Of a stretch of DNA of 34,685 bases, positions 4,037 through 34,685 are shown in pieces. Position 1 is the first letter of the stretch; each line of letters starts with the position of its first letter. The stretch is from Candidatus Pacearchaeota archaeon (lineage in GTDB: Archaea; Nanobdellota; Nanobdellia; Pacearchaeales; GW2011-AR1): the NCBI GenBank assembly GCA_017609695.1, contig JAFCDM010000001.1, positions 1 through 34,685 on the forward strand. Reading direction: 5' to 3'. The notes beneath the pieces are model-generated. The model was not told where the DNA came from, made no database searches, and worked only from the letters and a program-made list of their open reading frames with translations. The translations under genes and the position numbers were made by a program.

Positions 4037-4255
4037 ATGACACTAAAATATGAAATAACAAAAACAATAAGAAAAATTAGAAAAGGAAAATTAGAATGTG
4101 ATGTTTTAAAGTTTTGTTTTATTAAAGATTGTGATAATGTTTATTATAATGGAAAGTGGGTGGATTACAAATTAAAATTAGAAGATAAAATGTTAATATC
4201 TTCGGGAATGTGTGATGATTGTTATGATAAACACACAAAGGAGATGAAATTATGA
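4037..4255 (+). CDS. Cys-rich small protein
   Basis: 72-aa ORF with 6 Cys (CDVLKFC..C...CDDC), coupled to its neighbours by ATGA overlaps at both ends. Confidence 0.5.
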   Translation: MTLKYEITKTIRKIRKGKLECDVLKFCFIKDCDNVYYNGKWVDYKLKLEDKMLISSGMCDDCYDKHTKEMKL

Positions 4256-4751
4256 AAAAAGAATTTAATTTAAGTGAAGAAATGTTTGAGATAATAAAAA
4301 AAGTTTCTCAAAGAGAAATGATGCTTACACAATGGATGAATCAGATGGAGAACAATGTAATTTGTTTAACTAAAATTGTTGGAGGTAAAAAAAGATGATT
4401 GTAGAAGTTTCAATTGGAATTGCAAATTTAATCTTGCTAATTCTAATCATTTATCAAATAGTAAAAATCAGGAGAGATAAATGATGGTCTTAGACAAAAG
4501 TTTTAATGTATTAAAAGGAGGTAGCGTAGCGATAAGATGAGAAATATTATCAAGATTGGAAAAAACAATGAAAGAAATAACTAAACAACTAAACTTAATT
4601 AAGAAAAAGTGGGGAGTTGATGCTTTTGATGATATAACTAAATTTATTTTTAAACTTTATAGAAAGATAGAAGATTTAACAATATCAAGAAATAAATGGA
4701 AAAAGAAATATGAAAAACTGCATAAGAAATAAAGGTAAGAAAGTTTTACAA

Positions 4752-4836
4752 GAAACAGGGGTGTTGATATTGGCAAATTTAATTAAATTAAGATTTAAGG
4801 AGGGTATTTTCTAGTGGAAATGAAAACCCCTGTTTC
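4752..4836. repeat. 11-bp perfect inverted repeat (gaaacaggggt / acccctgtttc) separated by 63 nt
   Basis: 4752-4762 and 4826-4836 are exact reverse complements. The sequence is G+C rich against an AT-rich background. It lies at the left border of the GC-richer methyltransferase island. Confidence 0.8.
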
Positions 4837-4873
4837 CAATAGAAAGTTCGTTGTATATCATATTAAACGAAAT

Positions 4874-4886
4874 AAAGTCCGAGACC
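4874..4886. repeat. Left copy of a 13-bp perfect inverted repeat bracketing the methyltransferase gene
   Basis: aaagtccgagacc (4874-4886) is the exact reverse complement of ggtctcggacttt (5639-5651). This copy lies 14 nt upstream of the ATG at 4901. Confidence 0.85.
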
Positions 4887-4900
4887 TACAAAGCTAAAAA

Positions 4901-5759
4901 ATGCAAACCAATGTAATTTATCAGGAAGATTGTATAGAAGGAATGAAGAAGTTACCAGACAACAGCGTAGATTTAATTATAACAGACCCTCCTTATATGA
5001 TTAGTCAAGCAGGAAAAAAAATCAGCAGAAAATCACTTTCTTCAAAATCTTGGAAAAGAGATATGGATATTAGGTTAGATTTTGGAAAGTGGGATAATTT
5101 TGAAAGCGAAGCTGATTTTTTTAAATTTACAGAGAGTTGGTTTTCAGAATGTGCAAGGGTGCTTAAACCGAAAGGTTGGATTTATATTTTCTTTGATAAA
5201 CAGAAGATTGGATACTTTGATTTATTTTTATCAAAGAAATATGGAATAAAAGGAAGAACTGTTTTTGCTTGGCTCAAATCCAATCCTGTTCCGTCTTTCC
5301 GTAAAGTTAATTGGCTTTCTGCTTTCAGAATTTGTATGGGTTGGTAGTAAAGGGGAGTGTAAACTTAAAAATTTTCTTCAGCAGAAAGAGATGTTTAATT
5401 ATATGATTACTCCAAATAAATCATCTTACGGGAAGACAAAGCACCCAACAGAAAAGCCAGAATTAGTTATTGAAAAGTTTGTGAAAACCAACTCTGTTAA
5501 AGGAGATATTGTGCTTGACCCATTTATGGGGTCTGGAACTCTTGCTGTTGTCTGTAAGAGATTAAATAGAAATTACATTGGTTTTGAGATTAACAAAGAA
5601 TATTATGATGTTGCTATAAGGAGGTTATCACAGGGAACGGTCTCGGACTTTACTCAAAATGCTTCGCATTTTGGTTCTGCTCCGCAGAACTCGTTTAATA
5701 GCGATTTAACGGCTACGGCTTCGCTTACGCCCAAATTCCCTAAGGGGAACTATCGTTAA
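4901..5759 (+). pseudogene. Beta-class (motif IV before motif I) N6-adenine/N4-cytosine DNA methyltransferase, split by a 1-nt frame disruption near 5320-5330
   Basis: ORF 4901-5347 carries VDLIITDPPY (motif IV). ORF 5265-5759, in another frame, carries HPTEKPELVIEKF and DPFMGSGT (motif I). The expected continuous sequence ...NWLSAF/EFVWVGSKG... needs one skipped base after ttc at 5322-5324. The last 40 or so codons run into a non-coding repeat element. Confidence 0.85.
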
Positions 5760-23220: not shown

Positions 23221-23379
23221 ATGACATTAAAAAAATTAACAAAAAAAGAGAAGATGGGAATTGTTGGATTTAGTGCAACAATTGTTGGGATTTATATGAT
23301 TTTTATCTTAAAGAACACAAGGGGGGTAATACCACTAATTTTTGGAATTATTTTTATTTGGTTAATGAAAAATGGTTAA
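23221..23379 (+). CDS. Small membrane protein
   Basis: Hand translation gives 52 aa: MTLKKLTKKEKMGIVGFSATIVGIYMIFILKNTRGVIPLIFGIIFIWLMKNG. Confidence 0.45.
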   Translation: MTLKKLTKKEKMGIVGFSATIVGIYMIFILKNTRGVIPLIFGIIFIWLMKNG

Positions 23380-23860
23380 ACAATTAGTTGGAATTGATAG
23401 GGACATAATAAAAGATTCTTTTTTTGGAATATTAATTGGGATTGGAATTTTGTTTTTGGGAGCATTTGTACCTGGAATAGGAACAATAGGAATTCCTAGT
23501 GTTCCACAATCATTGTCCTCAGACACTTCAAGGTTTATAGTTGTGGTTATTCTCGCAAGTACTTTTGAAACTTTAGGATTTTTTGATGTAATTTTCTCTT
23601 TTATCAAGGATAAACTTTCACAATTTACTGGAATAAAAATACCTTTTTCAATTGCCACAATATTGACAAGTTTGGTGTTTTCAGGTTTCCATTATTCTGC
23701 TTATGGTTCTGGAAGTTCTGGAGCATTTTTTACTGCATTTTTAATGGGAATTGTTTTTTGCTATGAAAGAAAGTTTTTTAATAGTAATTTACCAGGAATA
23801 TTCACACACGCTGTTTTAAACTTTTATATTGCTTTCATTAGTTTAGCAGTGATAGTATAA
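23372..23860 (+). CDS. CPBP-family (CAAX protease / Abi-like) intramembrane protease candidate
   Basis: Polytopic, 162 aa. Motif 2 is FSGFHYSAY (FxxxH) and motif 3 is FTHAVLNFY (HxxxN). Motif 1 is degenerate (FETLGFF instead of EExxxR). Confidence 0.6.
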   Translation: MVKQLVGIDRDIIKDSFFGILIGIGILFLGAFVPGIGTIGIPSVPQSLSSDTSRFIVVVILASTFETLGFFDVIFSFIKDKLSQFTGIKIPFSIATILTSLVFSGFHYSAYGSGSSGAFFTAFLMGIVFCYERKFFNSNLPGIFTHAVLNFYIAFISLAVIV

Positions 23861-25010: not shown

Positions 25011-25057
25011 CAATCCCCTATAAATTTGATTGGTTATGTTACAAAACTAAGAGGATA

Positions 25058-25135
25058 ATGGATAAAAAAGCACAAATTAAACTTTTTATAATTGGAATTT
25101 TACTTTTATTAGTTTTAAGTGTTTTTGTTCTTGCA
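25058..25135 (+). repeat. 78-nt leader-peptide repeat, copy 1
   Basis: atggataaaaaagcacaaattaaac...gtttttgttcttgca is identical to 27426-27503. Confidence 0.95.
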
Positions 25136-27433
25136 ATAACAATAGAAATTGTAGAATCTGGGGAAAATATTGGGGGACATTCTTCAATAGCAATGAATTC
25201 TGACGATATTATACATATGGTTCATCGTAATATGGATAACGGAGATTTAAGGTATTGTAATAATTCTGGAGGTTCGTGGAGTTGTATAAATTTAACATCT
25301 GGTATTGATATGAGAAACCCATCTATTGCAATAGATTCTAAAGGTGTGTTAAATATTATGGTTTATAATTTTGAAGCATCGCAATTAAATTATTTAAATA
25401 ACTCTGGTGGCTCTTGGAATGGATATGTTGTTTTAAATGTAAATTCTCCAAATCCATCTATAGCAATAGATTCAAACGATGTTGTACATTTTTCTTTTTT
25501 TCTTGAATCATCAACTGATTTAATGTATGGTAATAACTCTGGTGGCTCTTGGAGTTTTGAAAATATAGATGATGCTGGTAGTGTTGGAAATTATCCATCT
25601 ATGGCAATAGATTCAACTGACACAATCCATATCTCACACTACAAAGATGATTCTGGAGATTTAAGGTATTGTAATAATTCTGGAGGTTCGTGGAGTTGTG
25701 TCTCTGTAGAAACAGATAATGATGTTGGGAGATATTCTTCTCTTACAATAGGTTTGGATAATGTAGTACATATCTCTGGATATGATGCAACAAATGGAGA
25801 TTTAAGGTATTGTAATAATTCTGGAGGTTCGTGGAGTTGTGTCCCTGTTGATACTGAAGGAAATACTGGTGTTTATTCATCAATAGATTCTGGTATAGAT
25901 AATATAATTAGTATAGTAAGTTTTGATTCTGATGAAAATAATACAAGGTATTGTAATAATTCTGGAGGTTCGTGGAGTTGTTATAACCTTTTTAGTGTTG
26001 GAACAGACCCAACATTTGGGTCACCATCAAATAGGTGGATGGCTATAAAAAAAGGAAGGGTCTCTGGAATTTCAAACTTTTCAAGTTATGCACATATGGG
26101 ATTTTATAATACTTCTATTAATTTTTTTTATGCAAAAGAAAAAGTAACGCCTCTTGGTGTGTTGATAACCTATCCTTCTAATGATAGTTATGGAATAAAT
26201 GTGATGGAACTAAATTATACTCTAAATAATGTTGATTGTGATTCTGTTTGGTATTCTTTAGATTTAGGTGTAACAAATTCTTCAAGACAAGATTGTGGAT
26301 TAAACTGGACAAGTATGAATTATAGTCAAGAAGATAATTTTATAAAAATTTATTCAAATGATACAGATGGATTAGTTTATGATTCTTCCACTACTTTTTA
26401 TATTGATTCAATACCCCCAGATATAAATATAACTTCTATAACAACTGTAAACTCTTCACAGACATTTACTTTTAATTCAACAACATCTGATGTTAATTTA
26501 GATTCTTGTAAATATACAATATTCAATTCAAGTGGTGATGTAGATGTTGAAAATACTACATTTACATGTAATGTTGTAGAACAATCTGCAACAGTTACTT
26601 TGTCTGGAACAAATGAATTTAATTTAACAATTTATTCTTCCGATATTTTTGGGAATGAAAATAGTTCAACACTTAACTTTTCTATAATTTTTGGTGTTGA
26701 AGGTTATTCTGATTCAAGTGGAGGAGGTGTAGGAGGAACTACAGAACCACAAAGAACAGAAACAGTTTGTATGGTTAGGAATTTTAATATAACAGGAATT
26801 GAAGAATTACAAAGATGTATAATTTATGCAAGAATTAAAGAGGTGTGTGTAAAAGATATTTGTTCATTGAATTTAGAGAAAAAAAACGAGATTATAAAAA
26901 ACTTAAATGAGCAAGAAGTAACTTTAAATTCTCAACAATTAGAACTTTTTTTAAATTCATATAATAATAAAGAAATTGAAGCAATAAAAATTTTAGATTC
27001 AGATATAGAAAAGTATTCTTTATTTACAGGAATAATTCAGGGAGTTTCTTTTGATATTGTTTCTGGGATAACAGATAAGTATTTTATTGCATTAACAAAT
27101 TATACAGAATATTTTGCATTTTCAAATAGAGAATTAGTTTCTTGTGAAGTTGTTGATGGAGATGTAGGATTTTCTTGTTTAGCGAAGAATACTACTGCAA
27201 AAATTTCTTATTCTTTAATTGGAGATTTAGATTATACATTTAAGACAGTAGAATCTACTATTTCTTTTGTTGATATAGATAATAATAGTGTTTTCAAAAA
27301 AGTAAGAATACGGGTTGTAAGACCAACAATTCAATTATTAATTTTAGTTGGTTCAATTGCATTAATTTCTGGATTGTGGGTATTTAATAAAAAAAGAATA
27401 ATTAAATATTTTAATAAATTGAAAAATGGATAA
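25058..27433 (+). CDS. Giant surface protein: six-bladed beta-propeller, two Ig-like domains, Gly-rich linker, Cys-containing C-terminal domain and TM anchor
   Basis: The leader is MDKKAQIKLFIIGILLLLVLSVFVLA. Six repeats of about 45 aa each carry NNSGGSW plus an xSSIAIDSxxxxH-like strand. The Ig-like domains contain CDSVWYSLDLGVTNSSRQDCGLNWT and DSCKYTIFNSSG...FGNENSS. The linker is SSGGGVGGTT and the terminal TM is LLILVGSIALISGLWVF. Confidence 0.8.
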   Translation: MDKKAQIKLFIIGILLLLVLSVFVLAITIEIVESGENIGGHSSIAMNSDDIIHMVHRNMDNGDLRYCNNSGGSWSCINLTSGIDMRNPSIAIDSKGVLNIMVYNFEASQLNYLNNSGGSWNGYVVLNVNSPNPSIAIDSNDVVHFSFFLESSTDLMYGNNSGGSWSFENIDDAGSVGNYPSMAIDSTDTIHISHYKDDSGDLRYCNNSGGSWSCVSVETDNDVGRYSSLTIGLDNVVHISGYDATNGDLRYCNNSGGSWSCVPVDTEGNTGVYSSIDSGIDNIISIVSFDSDENNTRYCNNSGGSWSCYNLFSVGTDPTFGSPSNRWMAIKKGRVSGISNFSSYAHMGFYNTSINFFYAKEKVTPLGVLITYPSNDSYGINVMELNYTLNNVDCDSVWYSLDLGVTNSSRQDCGLNWTSMNYSQEDNFIKIYSNDTDGLVYDSSTTFYIDSIPPDINITSITTVNSSQTFTFNSTTSDVNLDSCKYTIFNSSGDVDVENTTFTCNVVEQSATVTLSGTNEFNLTIYSSDIFGNENSSTLNFSIIFGVEGYSDSSGGGVGGTTEPQRTETVCMVRNFNITGIEELQRCIIYARIKEVCVKDICSLNLEKKNEIIKNLNEQEVTLNSQQLELFLNSYNNKEIEAIKILDSDIEKYSLFTGIIQGVSFDIVSGITDKYFIALTNYTEYFAFSNRELVSCEVVDGDVGFSCLAKNTTAKISYSLIGDLDYTFKTVESTISFVDIDNNSVFKKVRIRVVRPTIQLLILVGSIALISGLWVFNKKRIIKYFNKLKNG
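26237..26310 (+). repeat. Third, partial copy of the cassette core
   Basis: tgtgattctgtttggtattctttagatttaggtgtaacaaattcttcaagacaagattgtggattaaactggac is identical to the matching segments in 29331-29527 and 31254-31441. Confidence 0.9.
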
Positions 27434-27503
27434 AAAAGCACAAATTAAACTTTTTATAATTGGAATTTTACTTTTATTAGTTTTAAGTGTTTTTGTTCTT
27501 GCA
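27426..27503 (+). repeat. 78-nt leader-peptide repeat, copy 2
   Basis: Identical to 25058-25135. Identity starts 2 nt before the ATG and ends at the predicted signal-peptide end (VLA). Confidence 0.95.
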
Positions 27504-29177
27504 GGAGATTTAATTTCTTCTAATAATCTAAAAACATATAATGATTCAAAAAATGAATTTACAATTAAAAATAAAGATAGTAATTTAATTATTCAAGCAC
27601 AAAGATTAACTCCACAAAATAATTATATTATTGATGTTGGAAAGGGTGTTTTACAAGTAGTAGCAAAATATAATCTTTCTGATTTTGATAAAACTAAAAA
27701 AAATGTTTTTACTAAAACAGAATTTTATAATTTAAATAAAAAGATGAAAAAAGAAGAAAGATATTTTGAATGGAGATGGAAAAATACTTCTTCACATTTG
27801 GAAACAAATTATAGGAGAGATTGTTCAACAGAACTTGTTTGGAATGATGTAAATAAAACAAACGATGAAGTTGAAACTTGTGTTTTAGTTGAAGATGGAA
27901 AAAAAGAAGTTTATGATTATGAATGGATTAAATTTACAGAATTAAGTGAAATAGAAAAAGGTGTTGAAGTTGGTTTGTTTGTTGATGTTTTACGAGGAGA
28001 ACATATTGAGTATATTCCAACATTTGCAGGAGTAGAAATAACAGAAGATGCTGAATGGACAGAAAGTTTAAATGTGGGATTAGTAAGTTATTGGGCTCAC
28101 GAAGATGCAAGTGGAGCTACTTTAACAGATAATGTTTCATCAAATGATGGGGTTATAGATGGTGCTGATTGGTCTGCGTCAGGTTTAAATGGATATGCTT
28201 TATATTATGTTTCTGCTAATACAGATTATACAAAAATAGATGAAAGTGTAAGCATTTATAATTCAGATACTTATTCAATTTTTCTTTGGGTAAATTCTGA
28301 TTCAAATACAGAAAGTTCTATACTTTGTGCAAGATGGGGTGATGGTTCAGGCGATAGTAATCATCTTGCAACAAGAGCTGATGGAGGATATTATTGGGTA
28401 GTAGATACAGGTCTTGGACCAAAAGTAGTAGAACCAGTTCCCGATTTAATCCCAAGTGCAGGAGACTGGCACTCTTTTGCAATGGTTTATAATGGAGTAA
28501 ATGCAACACTTTATTATGATGGTGTTGAACAAAATGATGCAGAAGCAACAACAGGAGCATTTTCAACAACAAGACCAATAGTATTTGGTGCTTATGATGA
28601 CCTAACTGGTGGTTGGTTAAATGGATTAATTGATGAAGTTGGGTGGTGGAATAGAACTTTATCACTTTCTGAAATAGAACAATTAAATAATAGAATAACT
28701 TGGACTGATGAATTTGGAGATTCAACCCCCCCTTCAGTAACAATAAATACCCCAACTAACACAACCTACACCACAAATACAATAAACTTTAATGCAACTG
28801 CAACAGACAATATAGAAATTGATTCTTGTCTTTATTCTTTAAATTCAGGAGTTACAAACTACACATTAACAAATGAAACATCTGTTGATGATTATTATGG
28901 AACAAATACAACTATGGCTCAAGGTTCTCATATAGTTAATTTTTATTGTAATGATACATCTAATAATCTAAATGATTCAGAGAGTATTACTTTTTATATT
29001 GATTCAATAAATCCATCAGCAACAACAAACACACCAGAAAATAACACTTATTCAAATTCAGACCAAAATTACACAGCAAACCTAACAGATAATTTAGGAA
29101 TAAAGAATTCAACTTTATATATTTATAATGAAACTGGAATTGAAAACCAAACAACAACCAATGTATTGTTAGTTTAA
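27426..29177 (+). CDS. Surface protein with a LamG (concanavalin-A-like lectin) domain and Ig-like repeats; probably the 5' part of a split gene continuing at 29186
   Basis: It has the same 26-aa leader as 25058. The LamG signature is LVSYWAHEDASGATLTDNVSSNDGVIDGADW...WHSFAMVYNGVNATLYYDGV...GLIDEVGWWNRTLSLSEIEQL. The ORF ends inside an Ig-like domain and has no C-terminal TM anchor. Confidence 0.75.
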   Translation: MDKKAQIKLFIIGILLLLVLSVFVLAGDLISSNNLKTYNDSKNEFTIKNKDSNLIIQAQRLTPQNNYIIDVGKGVLQVVAKYNLSDFDKTKKNVFTKTEFYNLNKKMKKEERYFEWRWKNTSSHLETNYRRDCSTELVWNDVNKTNDEVETCVLVEDGKKEVYDYEWIKFTELSEIEKGVEVGLFVDVLRGEHIEYIPTFAGVEITEDAEWTESLNVGLVSYWAHEDASGATLTDNVSSNDGVIDGADWSASGLNGYALYYVSANTDYTKIDESVSIYNSDTYSIFLWVNSDSNTESSILCARWGDGSGDSNHLATRADGGYYWVVDTGLGPKVVEPVPDLIPSAGDWHSFAMVYNGVNATLYYDGVEQNDAEATTGAFSTTRPIVFGAYDDLTGGWLNGLIDEVGWWNRTLSLSEIEQLNNRITWTDEFGDSTPPSVTINTPTNTTYTTNTINFNATATDNIEIDSCLYSLNSGVTNYTLTNETSVDDYYGTNTTMAQGSHIVNFYCNDTSNNLNDSESITFYIDSINPSATTNTPENNTYSNSDQNYTANLTDNLGIKNSTLYIYNETGIENQTTTNVLLV

Positions 29178-29527
29178 TAGATGGAGTGAAAACTTGGTTT
29201 TATGATGTTTTTGATTGGGCAGGAAATTCAGATATTTCAGAGAACTACACAATTACTATTGATACTATTAATTCAGATGTAGCAATAACTTACCCAACAA
29301 ACACTTCTTACACCTCAACCCAATCAATTTTAAATTATACCTATTCAGAAGAAAATTGTGATTCTGTTTGGTATTCTTTAGATTTAGGTGTAACAAATTC
29401 TTCAAGACAAGATTGTGGATTAAACTGGACTGGTTTAAGTTCTTTAAGTTCTTCTGAAGGTTCAAATACTTGGACAGTTTATATAAATGATTCAGCAGGA
29501 AATGAAAATAGTTCAAGTGTTACTTTT
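29009..29527 (+). repeat. About 0.5-kb cassette, copy A (spans the 27426/29186 gene break)
   Basis: 29009-29163 equals 30988-31142 with 1 mismatch. 29220-29272 equals 31143-31195 with 1 mismatch. 29331-29527 equals 31254-31441 except for a 9-nt indel. 29164-29219 (56 nt) is absent from copy B. 29273-29330 is diverged. Confidence 0.9.
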
Positions 29528-32479
29528 CTTGTTGCTACAACACCTCCAACCTGTGTTTTACTTGAACGAAGTATTACAGATATTAAAGAAAATTCAACTG
29601 GAATTTATGAAGTAATCGCTAATTGTTCATCACCTTACGAGTTGAATGGTTCAAGTGCATTATCTATGTACACTATTGAGGGGGTTCTTTCTCCAGGAAT
29701 TCCAAATTATTGGAGTATTAGACCACCAGAGAATGATAAAGCAGAATCAAATTTTTATTTTTCAGGAGAACAGATTTTTGTAGCAGATGGTAGAGCAGAT
29801 AATAGGTGGTATGATAATTATTATATTGATGGAGATAAATTATTTGATGATAATTTTACTTATTCTGTTCAAGATAACTCAAGTATTTATTTTTCAATTA
29901 CAGAAGAAAACTCAACACAATTTATTCTTAATTTTTCAAGAAATGTTGAAACAACATTTAGAAATATTATTTATTTAAGGAGAGGAAATCTAGAAAGAGA
30001 ATACAAGGCAGAGCAAAATTACGAAATTTATGACAATAATCCCATTTTAATTAAAATATGGAATTTAGATGCAGAAAGAGAGCATAAAAATTATACTATT
30101 AACATCTTTAGAAACATAAATTATTCTGGGAATCCAAATAAAAATTTAAATGCTTACATTTGTAATAGTTCGTATATTTTTAATGGGGGAACATCTCCAA
30201 AAGATGATTTAGATAATTGTGTTTTAATTAACAGTTTAGATAAAACAGAATTAGACAACATTTATTATTCTTCAAAAAATAGTACTTATTCAAAGGGGGT
30301 ATTTTCTTCTATTAATGGAATTTTAGGGGGTGTATATTTAACAAATTATACTTATCTTTATTATGAAAGTAATACACAATATGGTGCTGGTTTTTATAAT
30401 TTAAGATTTGCAAATGGTTCAAGTGGAACTAATGTAAGTTTTTTAGAATCTAATGTTTCGTGGAGTTCAACAGATGGGGGGGTGAATTTTGTAGATAATC
30501 CATTTACTCCAGATATTTGGTTTTCTGGAATTGCTGAAGGAGACGAACTTAATTTTGGTATAAATATTCAAGATATTTATGGAAATAATTTTACAAATTT
30601 CTCTTTTATCCACGATGATATAGGAGATGTTAATCATCCTATTACAAATCCAACTATTCTTTTCCTTAATAGTTCAATAAATACAAAGGATGATGATTTA
30701 AATAAAATTCATAAAGGATTAATGCAAATTTTAGTTGGTGTTTCCAAAGACCCAGATTCAGTTGGAAATGTAACTCATAATTTAACTTTACATAATCCTG
30801 ATGGAAGTTTAAATTACACAATTAATGCAAGTTTTTTAAGTGCAGATGATTCAGATGTTTGGAAAGATTTTGATACTTCTTTAGTTGCAGATGGAACTTA
30901 TAAAATTAATGTAACTGCATATTCTGGAGATAATTTTAATGATATTAAATCTTTTATGCAAGAAGATAATTTTACAATAGATAATACAAATCCATCAGCA
31001 ACAACAAACACACCAGAAAATAACACCTATTCAAATTCAGACCAAAATTACACAGCAAACCTAACAGATAATTTAGGAATAAAGAATTCAACTTTATATA
31101 TTTATAATGAAACTGGAATTGAAAACCAAACAACAACCAATGCAGGAAATTCAGATATTTCAGAGAACTACACAATTACTATTGATACTATCAATCCTAA
31201 TTTAAATTTAACTTATCCCTTGAATATTTCTTATTCAACAAGTGTTTCTAGAATAAATTATACCTATTCAGAAGAAAATTGTGATTCTGTTTGGTATTCT
31301 TTAGATTTAGGTGTAACAAATTCTTCAAGACAAGATTGTGGATTAAACTGGACTGGTTTAAGTTCTTCTGAAGGTTCAAATACTTGGACAGTTTATATAA
31401 ATGATTCAGCAGGAAATGAAAATAGTTCAAGTGTTACTTTTACTTCAATAGCAACTGCACCAAATGTAATATTATTAAATCCCCCAAATAATGCTTATGA
31501 TGGGGATACTATTTTAGAATTCCAGTATTATGTTACAAGTAGCACAACAATTTCAAATTGTTCTATTTATTTTGATAATAATGTTTTACAAACAACACAA
31601 TCTCCAATAACAAACGGGACAATAAATAATTATTATGTTGATTTTGATTCAACAAGTATTTATCTTAAAGATAACTTAAATTGGTTTGTAAATTGCACAG
31701 ATATAAATAATAAAGAAAATTCTTCTGATGTGTGGGTTGTTGATACATTAGAAGGGGGTTCTGGTTCAAGTGGTGGAGGTGGAGGAGGAACTTATGTGGA
31801 ATTAGAAGTTAATGAATTAGTTTGTAATCAAACCTATTATTATATTTTAAATAATGAAGAAAATTTAACAAGTTTAGTTGAAAAGGTAAATGCTTATTCA
31901 GAATCTTTATTAAGTCGTTATTATTTAGGAAATGTTATAACAAATTGGCAAAATGTTTGTTCAAATAAAATAAATAGAACATTAAAACCAGAGTTTGTTT
32001 GTGAAAAAATATTTTATTATTTAATAGATGAAAATAAAACAGAAGAAGATTTAAATATTTTAAAATCATCAATTAATGATGAAATTTTGTTTTCAGATGG
32101 TTTGTTAGCATATTATTCCGATAATTATAATTCAGTGTGTTATGGGGAGGGGTATTCTGATGCAATTCCAACACGGAATACCCTATCAATAATTCCAATA
32201 ATTTTTAGTGGAGAAATAAATAAATGTAATGAAACCATTGGAATAGATTTTTTTGATTATAGTCTTGATTTTTTCAAAGATGGAATATCTGTTGGAAACC
32301 TCTCTTGTGAATCAACAGATTTTTGGAGGTATATTGTTTCTATCAAAAGAAATGAATCAAATAATACAAAAATAGTTGGTATAAAAATATGGCATATCTT
32401 TTCAATACTTTTTTTAATTTTGTCAATTTATGGAATTAAGGTGTTAAGGAAAGTGAATAAAAAATTAGATGGAATTTAA
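29186..32479 (+). CDS. Giant surface protein (3' part of the split gene): Ig-like repeats, large central domain, Gly-rich linker, Cys-containing domain and TM anchor
   Basis: It has no signal peptide and a GTG pseudo-start. The frame is open from 29144. It begins mid-domain (GVKTWFYDVFDWAGNSDISENYTITIDTIN). The linker is GGSGSSGGGGGGT and the terminal TM is IWHIFSILFLILSIYGI. The C-terminal architecture parallels 25058-27433. Confidence 0.75.
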   Translation: MKTWFYDVFDWAGNSDISENYTITIDTINSDVAITYPTNTSYTSTQSILNYTYSEENCDSVWYSLDLGVTNSSRQDCGLNWTGLSSLSSSEGSNTWTVYINDSAGNENSSSVTFLVATTPPTCVLLERSITDIKENSTGIYEVIANCSSPYELNGSSALSMYTIEGVLSPGIPNYWSIRPPENDKAESNFYFSGEQIFVADGRADNRWYDNYYIDGDKLFDDNFTYSVQDNSSIYFSITEENSTQFILNFSRNVETTFRNIIYLRRGNLEREYKAEQNYEIYDNNPILIKIWNLDAEREHKNYTINIFRNINYSGNPNKNLNAYICNSSYIFNGGTSPKDDLDNCVLINSLDKTELDNIYYSSKNSTYSKGVFSSINGILGGVYLTNYTYLYYESNTQYGAGFYNLRFANGSSGTNVSFLESNVSWSSTDGGVNFVDNPFTPDIWFSGIAEGDELNFGINIQDIYGNNFTNFSFIHDDIGDVNHPITNPTILFLNSSINTKDDDLNKIHKGLMQILVGVSKDPDSVGNVTHNLTLHNPDGSLNYTINASFLSADDSDVWKDFDTSLVADGTYKINVTAYSGDNFNDIKSFMQEDNFTIDNTNPSATTNTPENNTYSNSDQNYTANLTDNLGIKNSTLYIYNETGIENQTTTNAGNSDISENYTITIDTINPNLNLTYPLNISYSTSVSRINYTYSEENCDSVWYSLDLGVTNSSRQDCGLNWTGLSSSEGSNTWTVYINDSAGNENSSSVTFTSIATAPNVILLNPPNNAYDGDTILEFQYYVTSSTTISNCSIYFDNNVLQTTQSPITNGTINNYYVDFDSTSIYLKDNLNWFVNCTDINNKENSSDVWVVDTLEGGSGSSGGGGGGTYVELEVNELVCNQTYYYILNNEENLTSLVEKVNAYSESLLSRYYLGNVITNWQNVCSNKINRTLKPEFVCEKIFYYLIDENKTEEDLNILKSSINDEILFSDGLLAYYSDNYNSVCYGEGYSDAIPTRNTLSIIPIIFSGEINKCNETIGIDFFDYSLDFFKDGISVGNLSCESTDFWRYIVSIKRNESNNTKIVGIKIWHIFSILFLILSIYGIKVLRKVNKKLDGI
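30988..31441 (+). repeat. About 0.5-kb cassette, copy B (internal to 29186-32479)
   Basis: See copy A. This copy reads through in frame (…ENQTTTN-AGNSDISENY…). Confidence 0.9.
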
Positions 32480-34283: not shown

Positions 34284-34581
34284 AATTTTTTTTCTTTGAT
34301 TTGTTTTTTAATTCTTTAATTAATTGGTATGCTTCTTGTTTGGTTAAATCTTCTTTTATTTTTATTCCTTCTTTTGATAACCTCCAAATTTGGCTTTTTG
34401 TGGCTAATTTATCTATATTTGGTTTTTCATTATCTAACATACCATCTTCTTCATAATTAACAAAAGCAATCCAATTTTTTTCAATATAAAATATTTGTGT
34501 AGAGATATAATTCTTTAATTTATTTATTTCTTCCACTATTTGTTTTTCACTTCTTTTTTTAAAAACTTTTATTTTTTTCAT
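34273..34581 (-). CDS. Hypothetical protein (102 aa)
   Basis: ATG ORF coupled by ATGA to the 34-codon ORF inside the inverted repeat, and overlapping the primase start. I recognise no motif. Confidence 0.55.
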   Translation of the reverse strand: MKKIKVFKKRSEKQIVEEINKLKNYISTQIFYIEKNWIAFVNYEEDGMLDNEKPNIDKLATKSQIWRLSKEGIKIKEDLTKQEAYQLIKELKNKSKKKNFDY

Positions 34582-34682
34582 TTTATTTCTCTTTCTGCAA
34601 GTTTTAAATTTATTTTCTTTTTTTTAATTTCTTCTTCTGAAATCCAATCAATTAAATCTTGAGCATTTATTTCTTCTTTCAT
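34578..34682 (-). CDS. 34-codon ORF inside the right inverted-repeat arm (duplicate of the N-terminus of 260-472)
   Basis: Translation is MKEEINAQDLIDWISEEEIKKKKINLKLAEREIK*. The stop falls exactly at the repeat boundary. It may serve only as a translational coupling leader. Confidence 0.35.
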   Translation of the reverse strand: MKEEINAQDLIDWISEEEIKKKKINLKLAEREIK

Positions 34683-34685
34683 ATA
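34581..34685. repeat. Right arm of the 105-bp perfect inverted repeat, truncated by the window end
   Basis: Same comparison as the left arm. This arm ends exactly at the last base of the window, so the repeat may continue as the inverted copy of 1-256. Confidence 0.95.

Follow-up and report, generated by a model that had tools for sequence, protein, structure and literature searches.

Two adjacent open reading frames (ORFs) on contig JAFCDM010000001.1 of a Candidatus Pacearchaeota archaeon (assembly GCA_017609695.1; positions 1 to 34,685, the whole stretch of 34,685 nt analysed here, are referred to as the window) are very probably the two halves of a single ancestral gene of 1,684 codons, which would encode a large surface protein and is interrupted inside an immunoglobulin (Ig)-like domain. 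The 5' part, ORF1 (27426-29177; 583 aa), and the 3' part, ORF2 (29144-32479; 1,111 open codons), lie on the forward (+) strand, as do all other features of this locus described below, and are in different frames. Four independent lines of evidence lead us to the single gene: a domain model that is split between the two ORFs, the predicted fold of the fused domain, colinear homologues encoded by single ORFs, and the topology of signal peptide and membrane anchor. As to the origin of the break, we favour, at about even confidence, a genuine scar, very young in evolutionary terms, of an out-of-frame deletion or of recombination; an artefact of assembly, sequencing or consensus is a less probable alternative that has to be taken seriously.

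Two reading frames and the break between them

ORF1 encodes a signal peptide (residues 1-26), a family-specific N-terminal domain, a LamG domain (residues 265-417, nt 28218-28676), a first Ig-like domain (residues 432-527) and the first half of a second one (residues 526-579). The LamG assignment comes from the Laminin_G_3 profile (PF13385; 67.6 bits, E=1.8e-18, gathering cut-off 27.6), and the first Ig-like domain scores 24.9 bits with Big_7 (gathering cut-off 24.1). The C-terminus of ORF1 reads ...NQTTTNVLLV before the stop (...IENQTTTNVLLV; ...NETGIENQTTTNVLLV), and TAA TAG follows. In the -1 (+2) frame, the last stop is found at 29141-29143, after which the frame is stop-free from 29144 to 32479; its translation opens with KPNNNQCIVSLIDGVKTWFYDVFDWAGNSDISENY... 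(...SLIDGVKTWFYDVFDWAGNSD). This frame encodes the second half of Ig-like domain 2, more Ig-like domains (36.5 bits with Big_13 on ORF2, gathering cut-off 27), a unique central region, an internal duplicate cassette, a Gly/Ser linker, a Cys-containing domain and a C-terminal transmembrane anchor (nt 32366-32455). The first start codon in the ORF2 frame, and thus its mechanical start, is the GTG at 29186, 9 nt past the ORF1 stop, which gives a product of 1097 aa, and the first ATG is located 174 codons past the opening of the frame.

Both frames are open over 34 nt (29144-29177), and the change from frame 0 to frame -1 must fall within this overlap. Insertion of one base anywhere in 29141-29176 yields a single uninterrupted ORF of 1,684 codons. 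An earlier reading of this locus, made from the letters alone, had proposed one gene of about 1,690 codons with a one-base frame defect. The single gene stands, at the length of 1,684 codons that single-base repair gives, and the net change is indeed one base, but the lesion may be a larger deletion of 3n+1 nt, given a shortfall of 11 residues relative to homologues that is described below.

The interrupted Ig-like domain

A hidden Markov model (HMM) of the Ig-like domain, 96 positions long, was derived from 138 domain instances, all of them from database homologues and with the window sequences left out. Positions 1-52 of this model match residues 526-579 of ORF1 (19.0 bits), positions 61-96 match residues 6-41 of the open ORF2 frame (15.9 bits), and the fused sequence is matched over the full length, positions 1-96, with 37.1 bits. 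Likewise, the start of ORF2 corresponds to positions 71-102 of the 102 positions of the Pfam profile Big_13.

AlphaFold2, given an alignment of 44 homologous domains, predicts the fused 94-residue domain to be an all-beta, complete Ig-like sandwich with a mean predicted local distance difference test score (pLDDT) of 93.7 and a predicted template-modelling score (pTM) of 0.82. Five of the predicted strands are contributed by ORF1 (residues 8-13, 23-31, 36-45, 48-53 and 57-60 of the fused domain) and three by ORF2 (residues 64-74, 79-81 and 85-89). Run on three fused domains as single sequences, without an alignment, AlphaFold2 reached a pLDDT of only 31. In a Foldseek search, the model of the fused domain matched the BIg domain of the SiiE adhesin, PKD domains and FN3-like domains with template-modelling scores of about 0.7.

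Homologues, topology and start context

The fusion of both parts has an N-terminal domain of about 210 aa with an AxWTESLNV motif, and its LamG domain ends with DE(V/I)xIWNR. The best database homologues show 26-35% identity over the first 550-700 residues of the fusion. Four single-ORF homologues are colinear with it from the N-terminus across residue 583, the point of the break: P0001 (1581 aa, query residues 3-627), P0003 (1223 aa, 14-701), P0008 (1089 aa, 4-601) and L002 (1191 aa, 16-650). The sequence-only reading had named orthologues as a check on the single gene, and the relatives that cover the junction are all encoded by single ORFs, none of them with a conserved split. Surface-protein homologues come mostly from Woesearchaeota and other DPANN archaea, with the best ones in metagenome-assembled genomes (MAGs) of Woesearchaeota, Aenigmarchaeota, Pacearchaeota and Micrarchaeota.

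In the fusion, a hydropathy scan picks out residues 2-35 and residues 1648-1677 as the only hydrophobic segments. Taken separately, ORF1 has the signal sequence and no anchor, and ORF2 has the anchor and no signal sequence. One N-terminal and one C-terminal hydrophobic segment are likewise present in the upstream paralogue described below and in P0001, P0003, P0008, P0012, P0019, L002 and L003. Together with the HMM, the scan bears out the earlier proposal that the 583-aa ORF stops in the middle of an Ig-like domain and lacks an anchor. Judged by its sequence, the fusion would be a secreted, C-terminally membrane-anchored, sequon-rich surface protein of a kind known in DPANN (Woesearchaeota-like) archaea and their mobile elements.

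The start context of ORF2 differs from that of the genuine genes in the window, which begin with ATG, usually as ATG-AAA, and often have a GGAGG or GGTGA motif 6-10 nt upstream. At GTG 29186, a GGAG abuts the codon directly, and both the Shine-Dalgarno spacing and the ATG-AAA context are absent. ORF2 encodes 57 N-x-S/T sequons and extracellular-type Ig domains, yet has no signal peptide. That the downstream frame is open from 29144 without a signal peptide or a credible start, as had been claimed from the sequence, is thus reproduced here.

Immediately upstream lies a paralogue (25058-27433; 791 aa) that is intact from signal peptide through C-terminal anchor and overlaps the start of ORF1 by 8 nt. 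A block of 79 nt (25057-25135 and 27425-27503), comprising one upstream base and the first 78 coding nucleotides, i.e. the signal-peptide codons, is 100% identical between the paralogue and ORF1. Two otherwise distant homologues, P0019 and L001a, start with similar signal peptides (MDKKARIKLGIIG..., MDKRGKIW...). The paralogue also contains a repeat array at 25240-25998, whose five to six units of about 141 nt (47 aa) all carry an NNSGGSW(S)C motif; the array is beta-propeller-like in appearance and has no Pfam match.

Shared blocks and the internal duplicate

The break is located at the edge of a sequence that is repeated within the same gene. Shared block A (29009-29163) is identical at 154 of 155 positions to 30988-31142 and encodes NPSATTNTPENN...IENQTTTN, and shared block B (29219-29268) is identical at 50 of 50 positions to 31142-31191 and encodes AGNSDISENYTITIDTI. 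In the downstream copy (30988-31191), block A runs straight into block B without a change of frame, reading ...IENQTTTNAGNSDISENY... The counterpart of the upstream block lies at an offset of 1979 nt and that of the downstream block at one of 1923 nt, so AAT (29160-29162) and GCA (29219-29221) of copy 1 are 56 nt apart, which is 19 codons minus one base (3n-1). The in-frame fusion in the duplicate and the 56-nt spacing at the break had both been noted from the sequence and are reproduced here. The 155-nt repeat had also been described as identical; it exists, with a single mismatch at 29048, and its longest exact run is 115 nt.

The segment present only in copy 1 (29164-29218; 56 nt with the ambiguous G at 29163/29219 included) encodes IVSLIDGVKTWFYDVFDW in the -1 frame, which corresponds to strands E and F of the Ig-like domain. 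No other copy of it was found within the window. We considered and rejected a foreign or templated insertion as the source of this segment: it is unique in the window, and its translation in the -1 frame gives the conserved strands E and F, so that it belongs to the ancestral domain.

The Ig-like domain of copy 2 is itself about 30 codons short of the closest homologous domains, of which 11 correspond to the shortfall seen at the break and 19 to the 56-nt segment. The missing codons leave the frame intact, and their left endpoint is that of copy 1 (...ACCAAT, with the junction immediately after it). The copy 2 domain matches HMM positions 1-62 only, of 96, and it probably cannot form a complete sandwich. 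The sole further indel between both copies is one of 9 nt, in frame. When the copies are compared, the locus appears as a mosaic, in which blocks of 100% identity alternate with divergent patches.

Position and size of the lesion

The most likely junction is at 29163-29165, the 3' edge of the 155-nt block A. Frame-0 homology and identity with copy 2 reach 29162/29163, up to NQT(TTN), and homology in the -1 frame begins at 29165, where IVSLIDG aligns with VVTVLDG of the closest homologues. The frame-0 tail VLLV is probably out-of-frame read-through, as judged from this alignment. When all 36 possible single-base repairs were scored against an HMM of this domain subtype, the optimum was broad (29152-29167), the scores differed by only 1-5 bits, and the resolution was about 12 nt.

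The closest homologous domains of the subtype number four (P0018 and P0010 with one each, P0023 with two), and none of them is interrupted. At one end, they have NATLYIYN.TG...N.T in common, and at the opposite end ...IGIVVTVLDGVYTWFYNLFDWAGN. At exactly the break point, 4/4 of these domains have 11 extra residues, from which it follows that the lesion may be an out-of-frame deletion of about 34 nt (3n+1) and not a one-base indel. On this comparison of sequences, a deletion scar of that size is probably the better description than the loss of a single base.

Origin of the frame defect

The reading that we favour at about even confidence, a genuine and very recent scar, would involve the following steps. 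In a locus reshuffled by gene conversion, an out-of-frame deletion of about 34 nt would have occurred at the edge of block A, inside Ig-like domain 2. The resulting net -1 frame change at about 29163-29165 would end translation at 29175-29177, and the product would be a secreted, anchorless fragment of 583 aa that comprises the N-terminal domain, LamG, the first Ig domain and half of the second. The other two thirds of the gene, about 1,100 codons that lack a start and a signal peptide, would not be productively expressed.

Several observations are consistent with a real scar. The mosaic of identity blocks and the identical 79-nt 5' block in the two paralogues indicate that recombination is active in the locus. 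The frame switch coincides with the edge of a shared block; by simple arithmetic, the chance that a random position of a 5-kb gene falls in a 34-nt stretch is about 0.7%. The larger in-frame shortfall of copy 2, with the same left endpoint, also speaks for a real deletion. In 20.8 kb of intact ORFs of the window, 112 homopolymers of at least 6 nt are all in frame, and the runs around the break are 3-4 nt long, which argues against a sequencing error of the homopolymer type.

Other observations weigh against this reading. No near-identical sequence was found in the collections searched, so the 56-nt spacing is uncorroborated by a second assembly: the closest relatives in IMG/VR (protein and DNA pattern searches), GTDB genomes, JGI metagenomes and GenBank phages have about 35% identity at best. 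Searches with two other window proteins in IMG/VR, and with the PrimPol-like protein of the window in GenBank phages, returned no close relative, and exact-protein look-ups of ORF1 and ORF2 returned no record. No stop has yet interrupted the 1,111 codons of ORF2, even though 6.1% of single substitutions there would create one. The first nonsense mutation is expected at about 16 substitutions (0.5% divergence), with a 95% chance of one by about 1.5%; the open frame therefore means that the lesion is younger than about 1.5% neutral divergence, or is unreal, or that ORF2 is under selection. A second gene of the window, for a DNA methylase, also has a single-base frame defect, and assembly indel errors are conceivable. 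Finally, the 11-residue gap and the placement of the switch point rest on score differences of only 1-5 bits; loop lengths of Ig-like domains vary, and a plain one-base indel may be compatible with the alignment.

Some of these points bear directly on the strongest alternative, which we regard as possible but doubtful: that the organism has an intact gene of 1,684 codons (or longer) and that the net -1 change arose in sequencing, assembly or polishing. The consensus could, for example, have been drawn from several strains with different indels around the repeated cassette. Errors of this type would readily explain why 34.7 kb contain two frame-broken genes (those for the surface protein and the methylase) and why ORF2 is perfectly open; the defect is at the edge of a repeated block, a place troublesome for assemblers and polishers, and the sequence is evidently a metagenomic contig that ends inside an inverted repeat. 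However, both defects occur at runs of 3-4 nt, whereas the 112 longer homopolymers in intact ORFs are free of errors, and the 11-residue shortfall at the break looks like a real deletion. Nor should a path through a de Bruijn graph be able to introduce an offset of 1 nt that no read contains. The longest exact repeat, 115 nt, is shorter than the largest k-mers that assemblers usually employ and than typical read lengths. The sequence-only reading had left a real lesion and an assembly error side by side, the latter promoted by the repeat; both are still live, but a 115-nt exact run would be a weak promoter of misassembly.

We consider it unlikely that recombination acts here as a switch on a host-interaction protein of a linear, DPANN-associated element, with the break as a reversible OFF variant from which recombination or conversion of near-identical cassettes restores an in-frame gene that has both signal peptide and anchor. 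If the two 155-nt blocks recombined, 1,979 nt would be lost and an uninterrupted ORF of 1,024 codons with both signal and anchor would remain; the mosaic of identity shows past conversion between the copies, and ORF2 has been kept open. Moreover, the two broken genes, for a surface protein and a DNA methylase, belong to classical phase-variable classes. Against a switch, the restored product would have a truncated Ig domain, there is neither an invertase or recombinase site nor a simple repeat, and the idea is inferential throughout. In its classical form, the phase-variable indel that had been among the earlier options finds no repeat tract at the site: no homopolymer or tandem tract of about seven units or more is present at the frame change, the longest run in 29141-29177 is 4 nt, and the nearest repeat reported by Tandem Repeats Finder is an in-frame 9-nt unit at 29434-29453. 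Simple-sequence-repeat phase variation and transcriptional slippage were both rejected for lack of a tract.

Two bona fide genes, one for a secreted, anchorless, lectin-like protein of 583 aa and the other for a protein of 1097 aa translated from GTG 29186 by termination-reinitiation, are very unlikely. The GTG lies 9 nt past the ORF1 stop, and a natural anchorless short form does exist: in a Woesearchaeota MAG (CAYLOQ010000003.1, L001, 10001-14993), a 546-aa anchorless protein with N-terminal domain and LamG precedes a separate surface-protein gene of 1096 aa. This shows that anchorless N-terminal modules occur naturally. However, gene 1 of L001 closes after a complete, different C-terminal module, and gene 2 has its own ATG, a signal peptide and a 62-nt spacer in front of it; the L001 arrangement is no parallel to the split seen here, which falls within a domain. 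The ORF2 product would also carry its 57 sequons and extracellular-type Ig domains with no signal peptide, from a start with neither Shine-Dalgarno spacing nor an ATG.

Less probable still is programmed -1 ribosomal frameshifting or transcriptional slippage that joins the frames; the geometry (0/-1 frames, 34-nt overlap) and the single-polypeptide homologues would suit it, but among the 16 frame-0 heptamers in 29129-29180 there is none of the form X_XXY_YYZ, as the sequence-only reading had already stated, with a weak A_AAC as the sole candidate, no run of A or T exceeds 4 nt, the 131 nt around and downstream of the site have no stable structure (minimum free energy -19.6 kcal/mol, mean of shuffled sequences -19.3, z = -0.10), an Rfam scan of the window returned no match, and the split is not conserved in homologues. 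Reassignment of the stop codon was rejected, since the two parts are in different frames and a TGA follows within five codons in frame 0. In short, the case is an ordinary broken gene or an assembly flaw with no recoding signal, in a protein of a known kind.

The second broken gene and the surrounding element

The other frame-broken gene encodes an N6/N4 DNA methylase (PF01555; 4901-5759, forward strand) and consists of ORFs 4901-5347 and 5250-5759. The former matches positions 1-91 of PF01555, and the latter, in the +1 frame, positions 151-220. Removal of one T at 5323-5325 produces a single protein of 285 aa that matches PF01555 positions 1-220 of 221 with 160.8 bits. Homopolymer runs in the overlap of these two ORFs are at most 5 nt long.

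The window has a G+C content of 26% and looks like a mobile element. It contains a PrimPol-like gene (a weak match, below the Pfam cut-off) and a gene for an Rce1-like protease; no tRNA, rRNA or other marker gene was found in it, and ten window proteins had no match in PHROGs. An inverted repeat of 105 nt with 100% complementarity is present at 257-361 and 34581-34685, its right arm stopping exactly at the end of the window. It points to a linear element flanked by inverted terminal repeats of 361 nt or more and lacking about 256 nt at its right end; the alternative is a fold-back assembly artefact.

Upstream of the surface-protein genes, the segment 21954-23379 encodes six small genes (about 50-126 aa) with their own ATGs, most of them with a Shine-Dalgarno-like motif and most with hydrophobic, membrane-type products. 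The gene for the Rce1-like CAAX protease (23372-23860) is downstream of this run. A further frameshift cluster was considered for the short overlapping ORFs of the run and rejected, as every one of them is a separate gene that starts with an ATG.

A distantly related 29-kb contig of similar layout was found twice (L077/L078; JGI Ga0180732_1000579 and ENA k141_124218). Its order is DUF5906, Rce1-like protease, surface-protein genes of 1252 and 833 aa, and, on the opposite strand, a resolvase and a Zot-like ATPase. The giant surface-protein genes of this contig are uninterrupted, and one of its two copies has an IS605 OrfB/Cas12f-like gene call at 4077-5150. In a BLASTP comparison of window ORFs of at least 60 aa with the ORFs of L077/L078 (E <= 1e-4), only the surface proteins match.

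Comparison with known systems

Giant surface proteins of DPANN archaea with LamG and Big_13 or Big_7 domains (P0001, P0003, P0008, P0012, P0019 and Woesearchaeota L001-L003) resemble the fusion in their signal peptide, N-terminal domain, LamG, tandem sequon-rich Ig-like domains and C-terminal transmembrane anchor. In contrast to that family, the protein studied here has unique central and C-terminal regions, is divided between two ORFs and is encoded on a 26% G+C, probably linear element whose inverted terminal repeats are long. With frameshift-interrupted surface-protein genes of archaeal MAGs and mobile elements, the locus shares adjacent same-strand ORFs that correspond to the N- and C-terminal parts of one chain, a break inside a domain, and a second ORF without start or signal. 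It differs from plain cases of this type in that the break is at the edge of an intragenic duplicate and is accompanied by the 11-residue shortfall, which suggests a recombination or deletion scar.

Variation of surface proteins by cassettes and gene conversion is known from Borrelia vlsE and from Neisseria pilE/pilS. As in those systems, near-identical blocks alternate with divergent patches and paralogues share identical 5' ends; unlike them, the cassettes lie within one expressed gene, and there is neither an array of silent donors nor a sign of programmed switching. In Neisseria opa and in the mod phasevarions of Haemophilus and Neisseria, genes for surface proteins and DNA methylases are switched by simple-sequence repeats. 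The same two classes of genes are broken in the window, but neither break has such a tract, the runs being 3-4 nt here and at most 5 nt in the methylase overlap.

To our knowledge, fucA1 of Sulfolobus solfataricus is the only well-documented archaeal case of -1 frameshifting. Its two frames overlap by 40 nt, and its expression requires the heptamer A-AAA-AAT, which has stimulators at its flanks (PMC1616953). The present locus is similar in being of archaeal type, with 0/-1 frames, a short overlap (34 nt versus 40 nt) and full-length homologues, and differs in having no heptamer, no structure and no conserved split.

Implications

ORF1 and ORF2 should be annotated as one disrupted gene and not as two hypothetical proteins. 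The presence of two frame-broken genes in one 35-kb element is a flag for either assembly quality or decay of the element. If the break were, against our expectation, one state of a switch, gene conversion with the internal near-identical cassette as template could toggle an anchor-bearing form and alter the domain content of the protein, and this would explain both the 1,111 open downstream codons and the left junction common to the two copies. If the lesion is real, the largest surface protein of the element is reduced to an anchorless secreted fragment with the N-terminal domain and LamG, which bears on any inference about attachment to the host. On a small scale, the locus also illustrates concretely how giant surface proteins of DPANN-type archaea, or of mobile elements in them, can undergo gene conversion and the duplication of cassettes within a gene.

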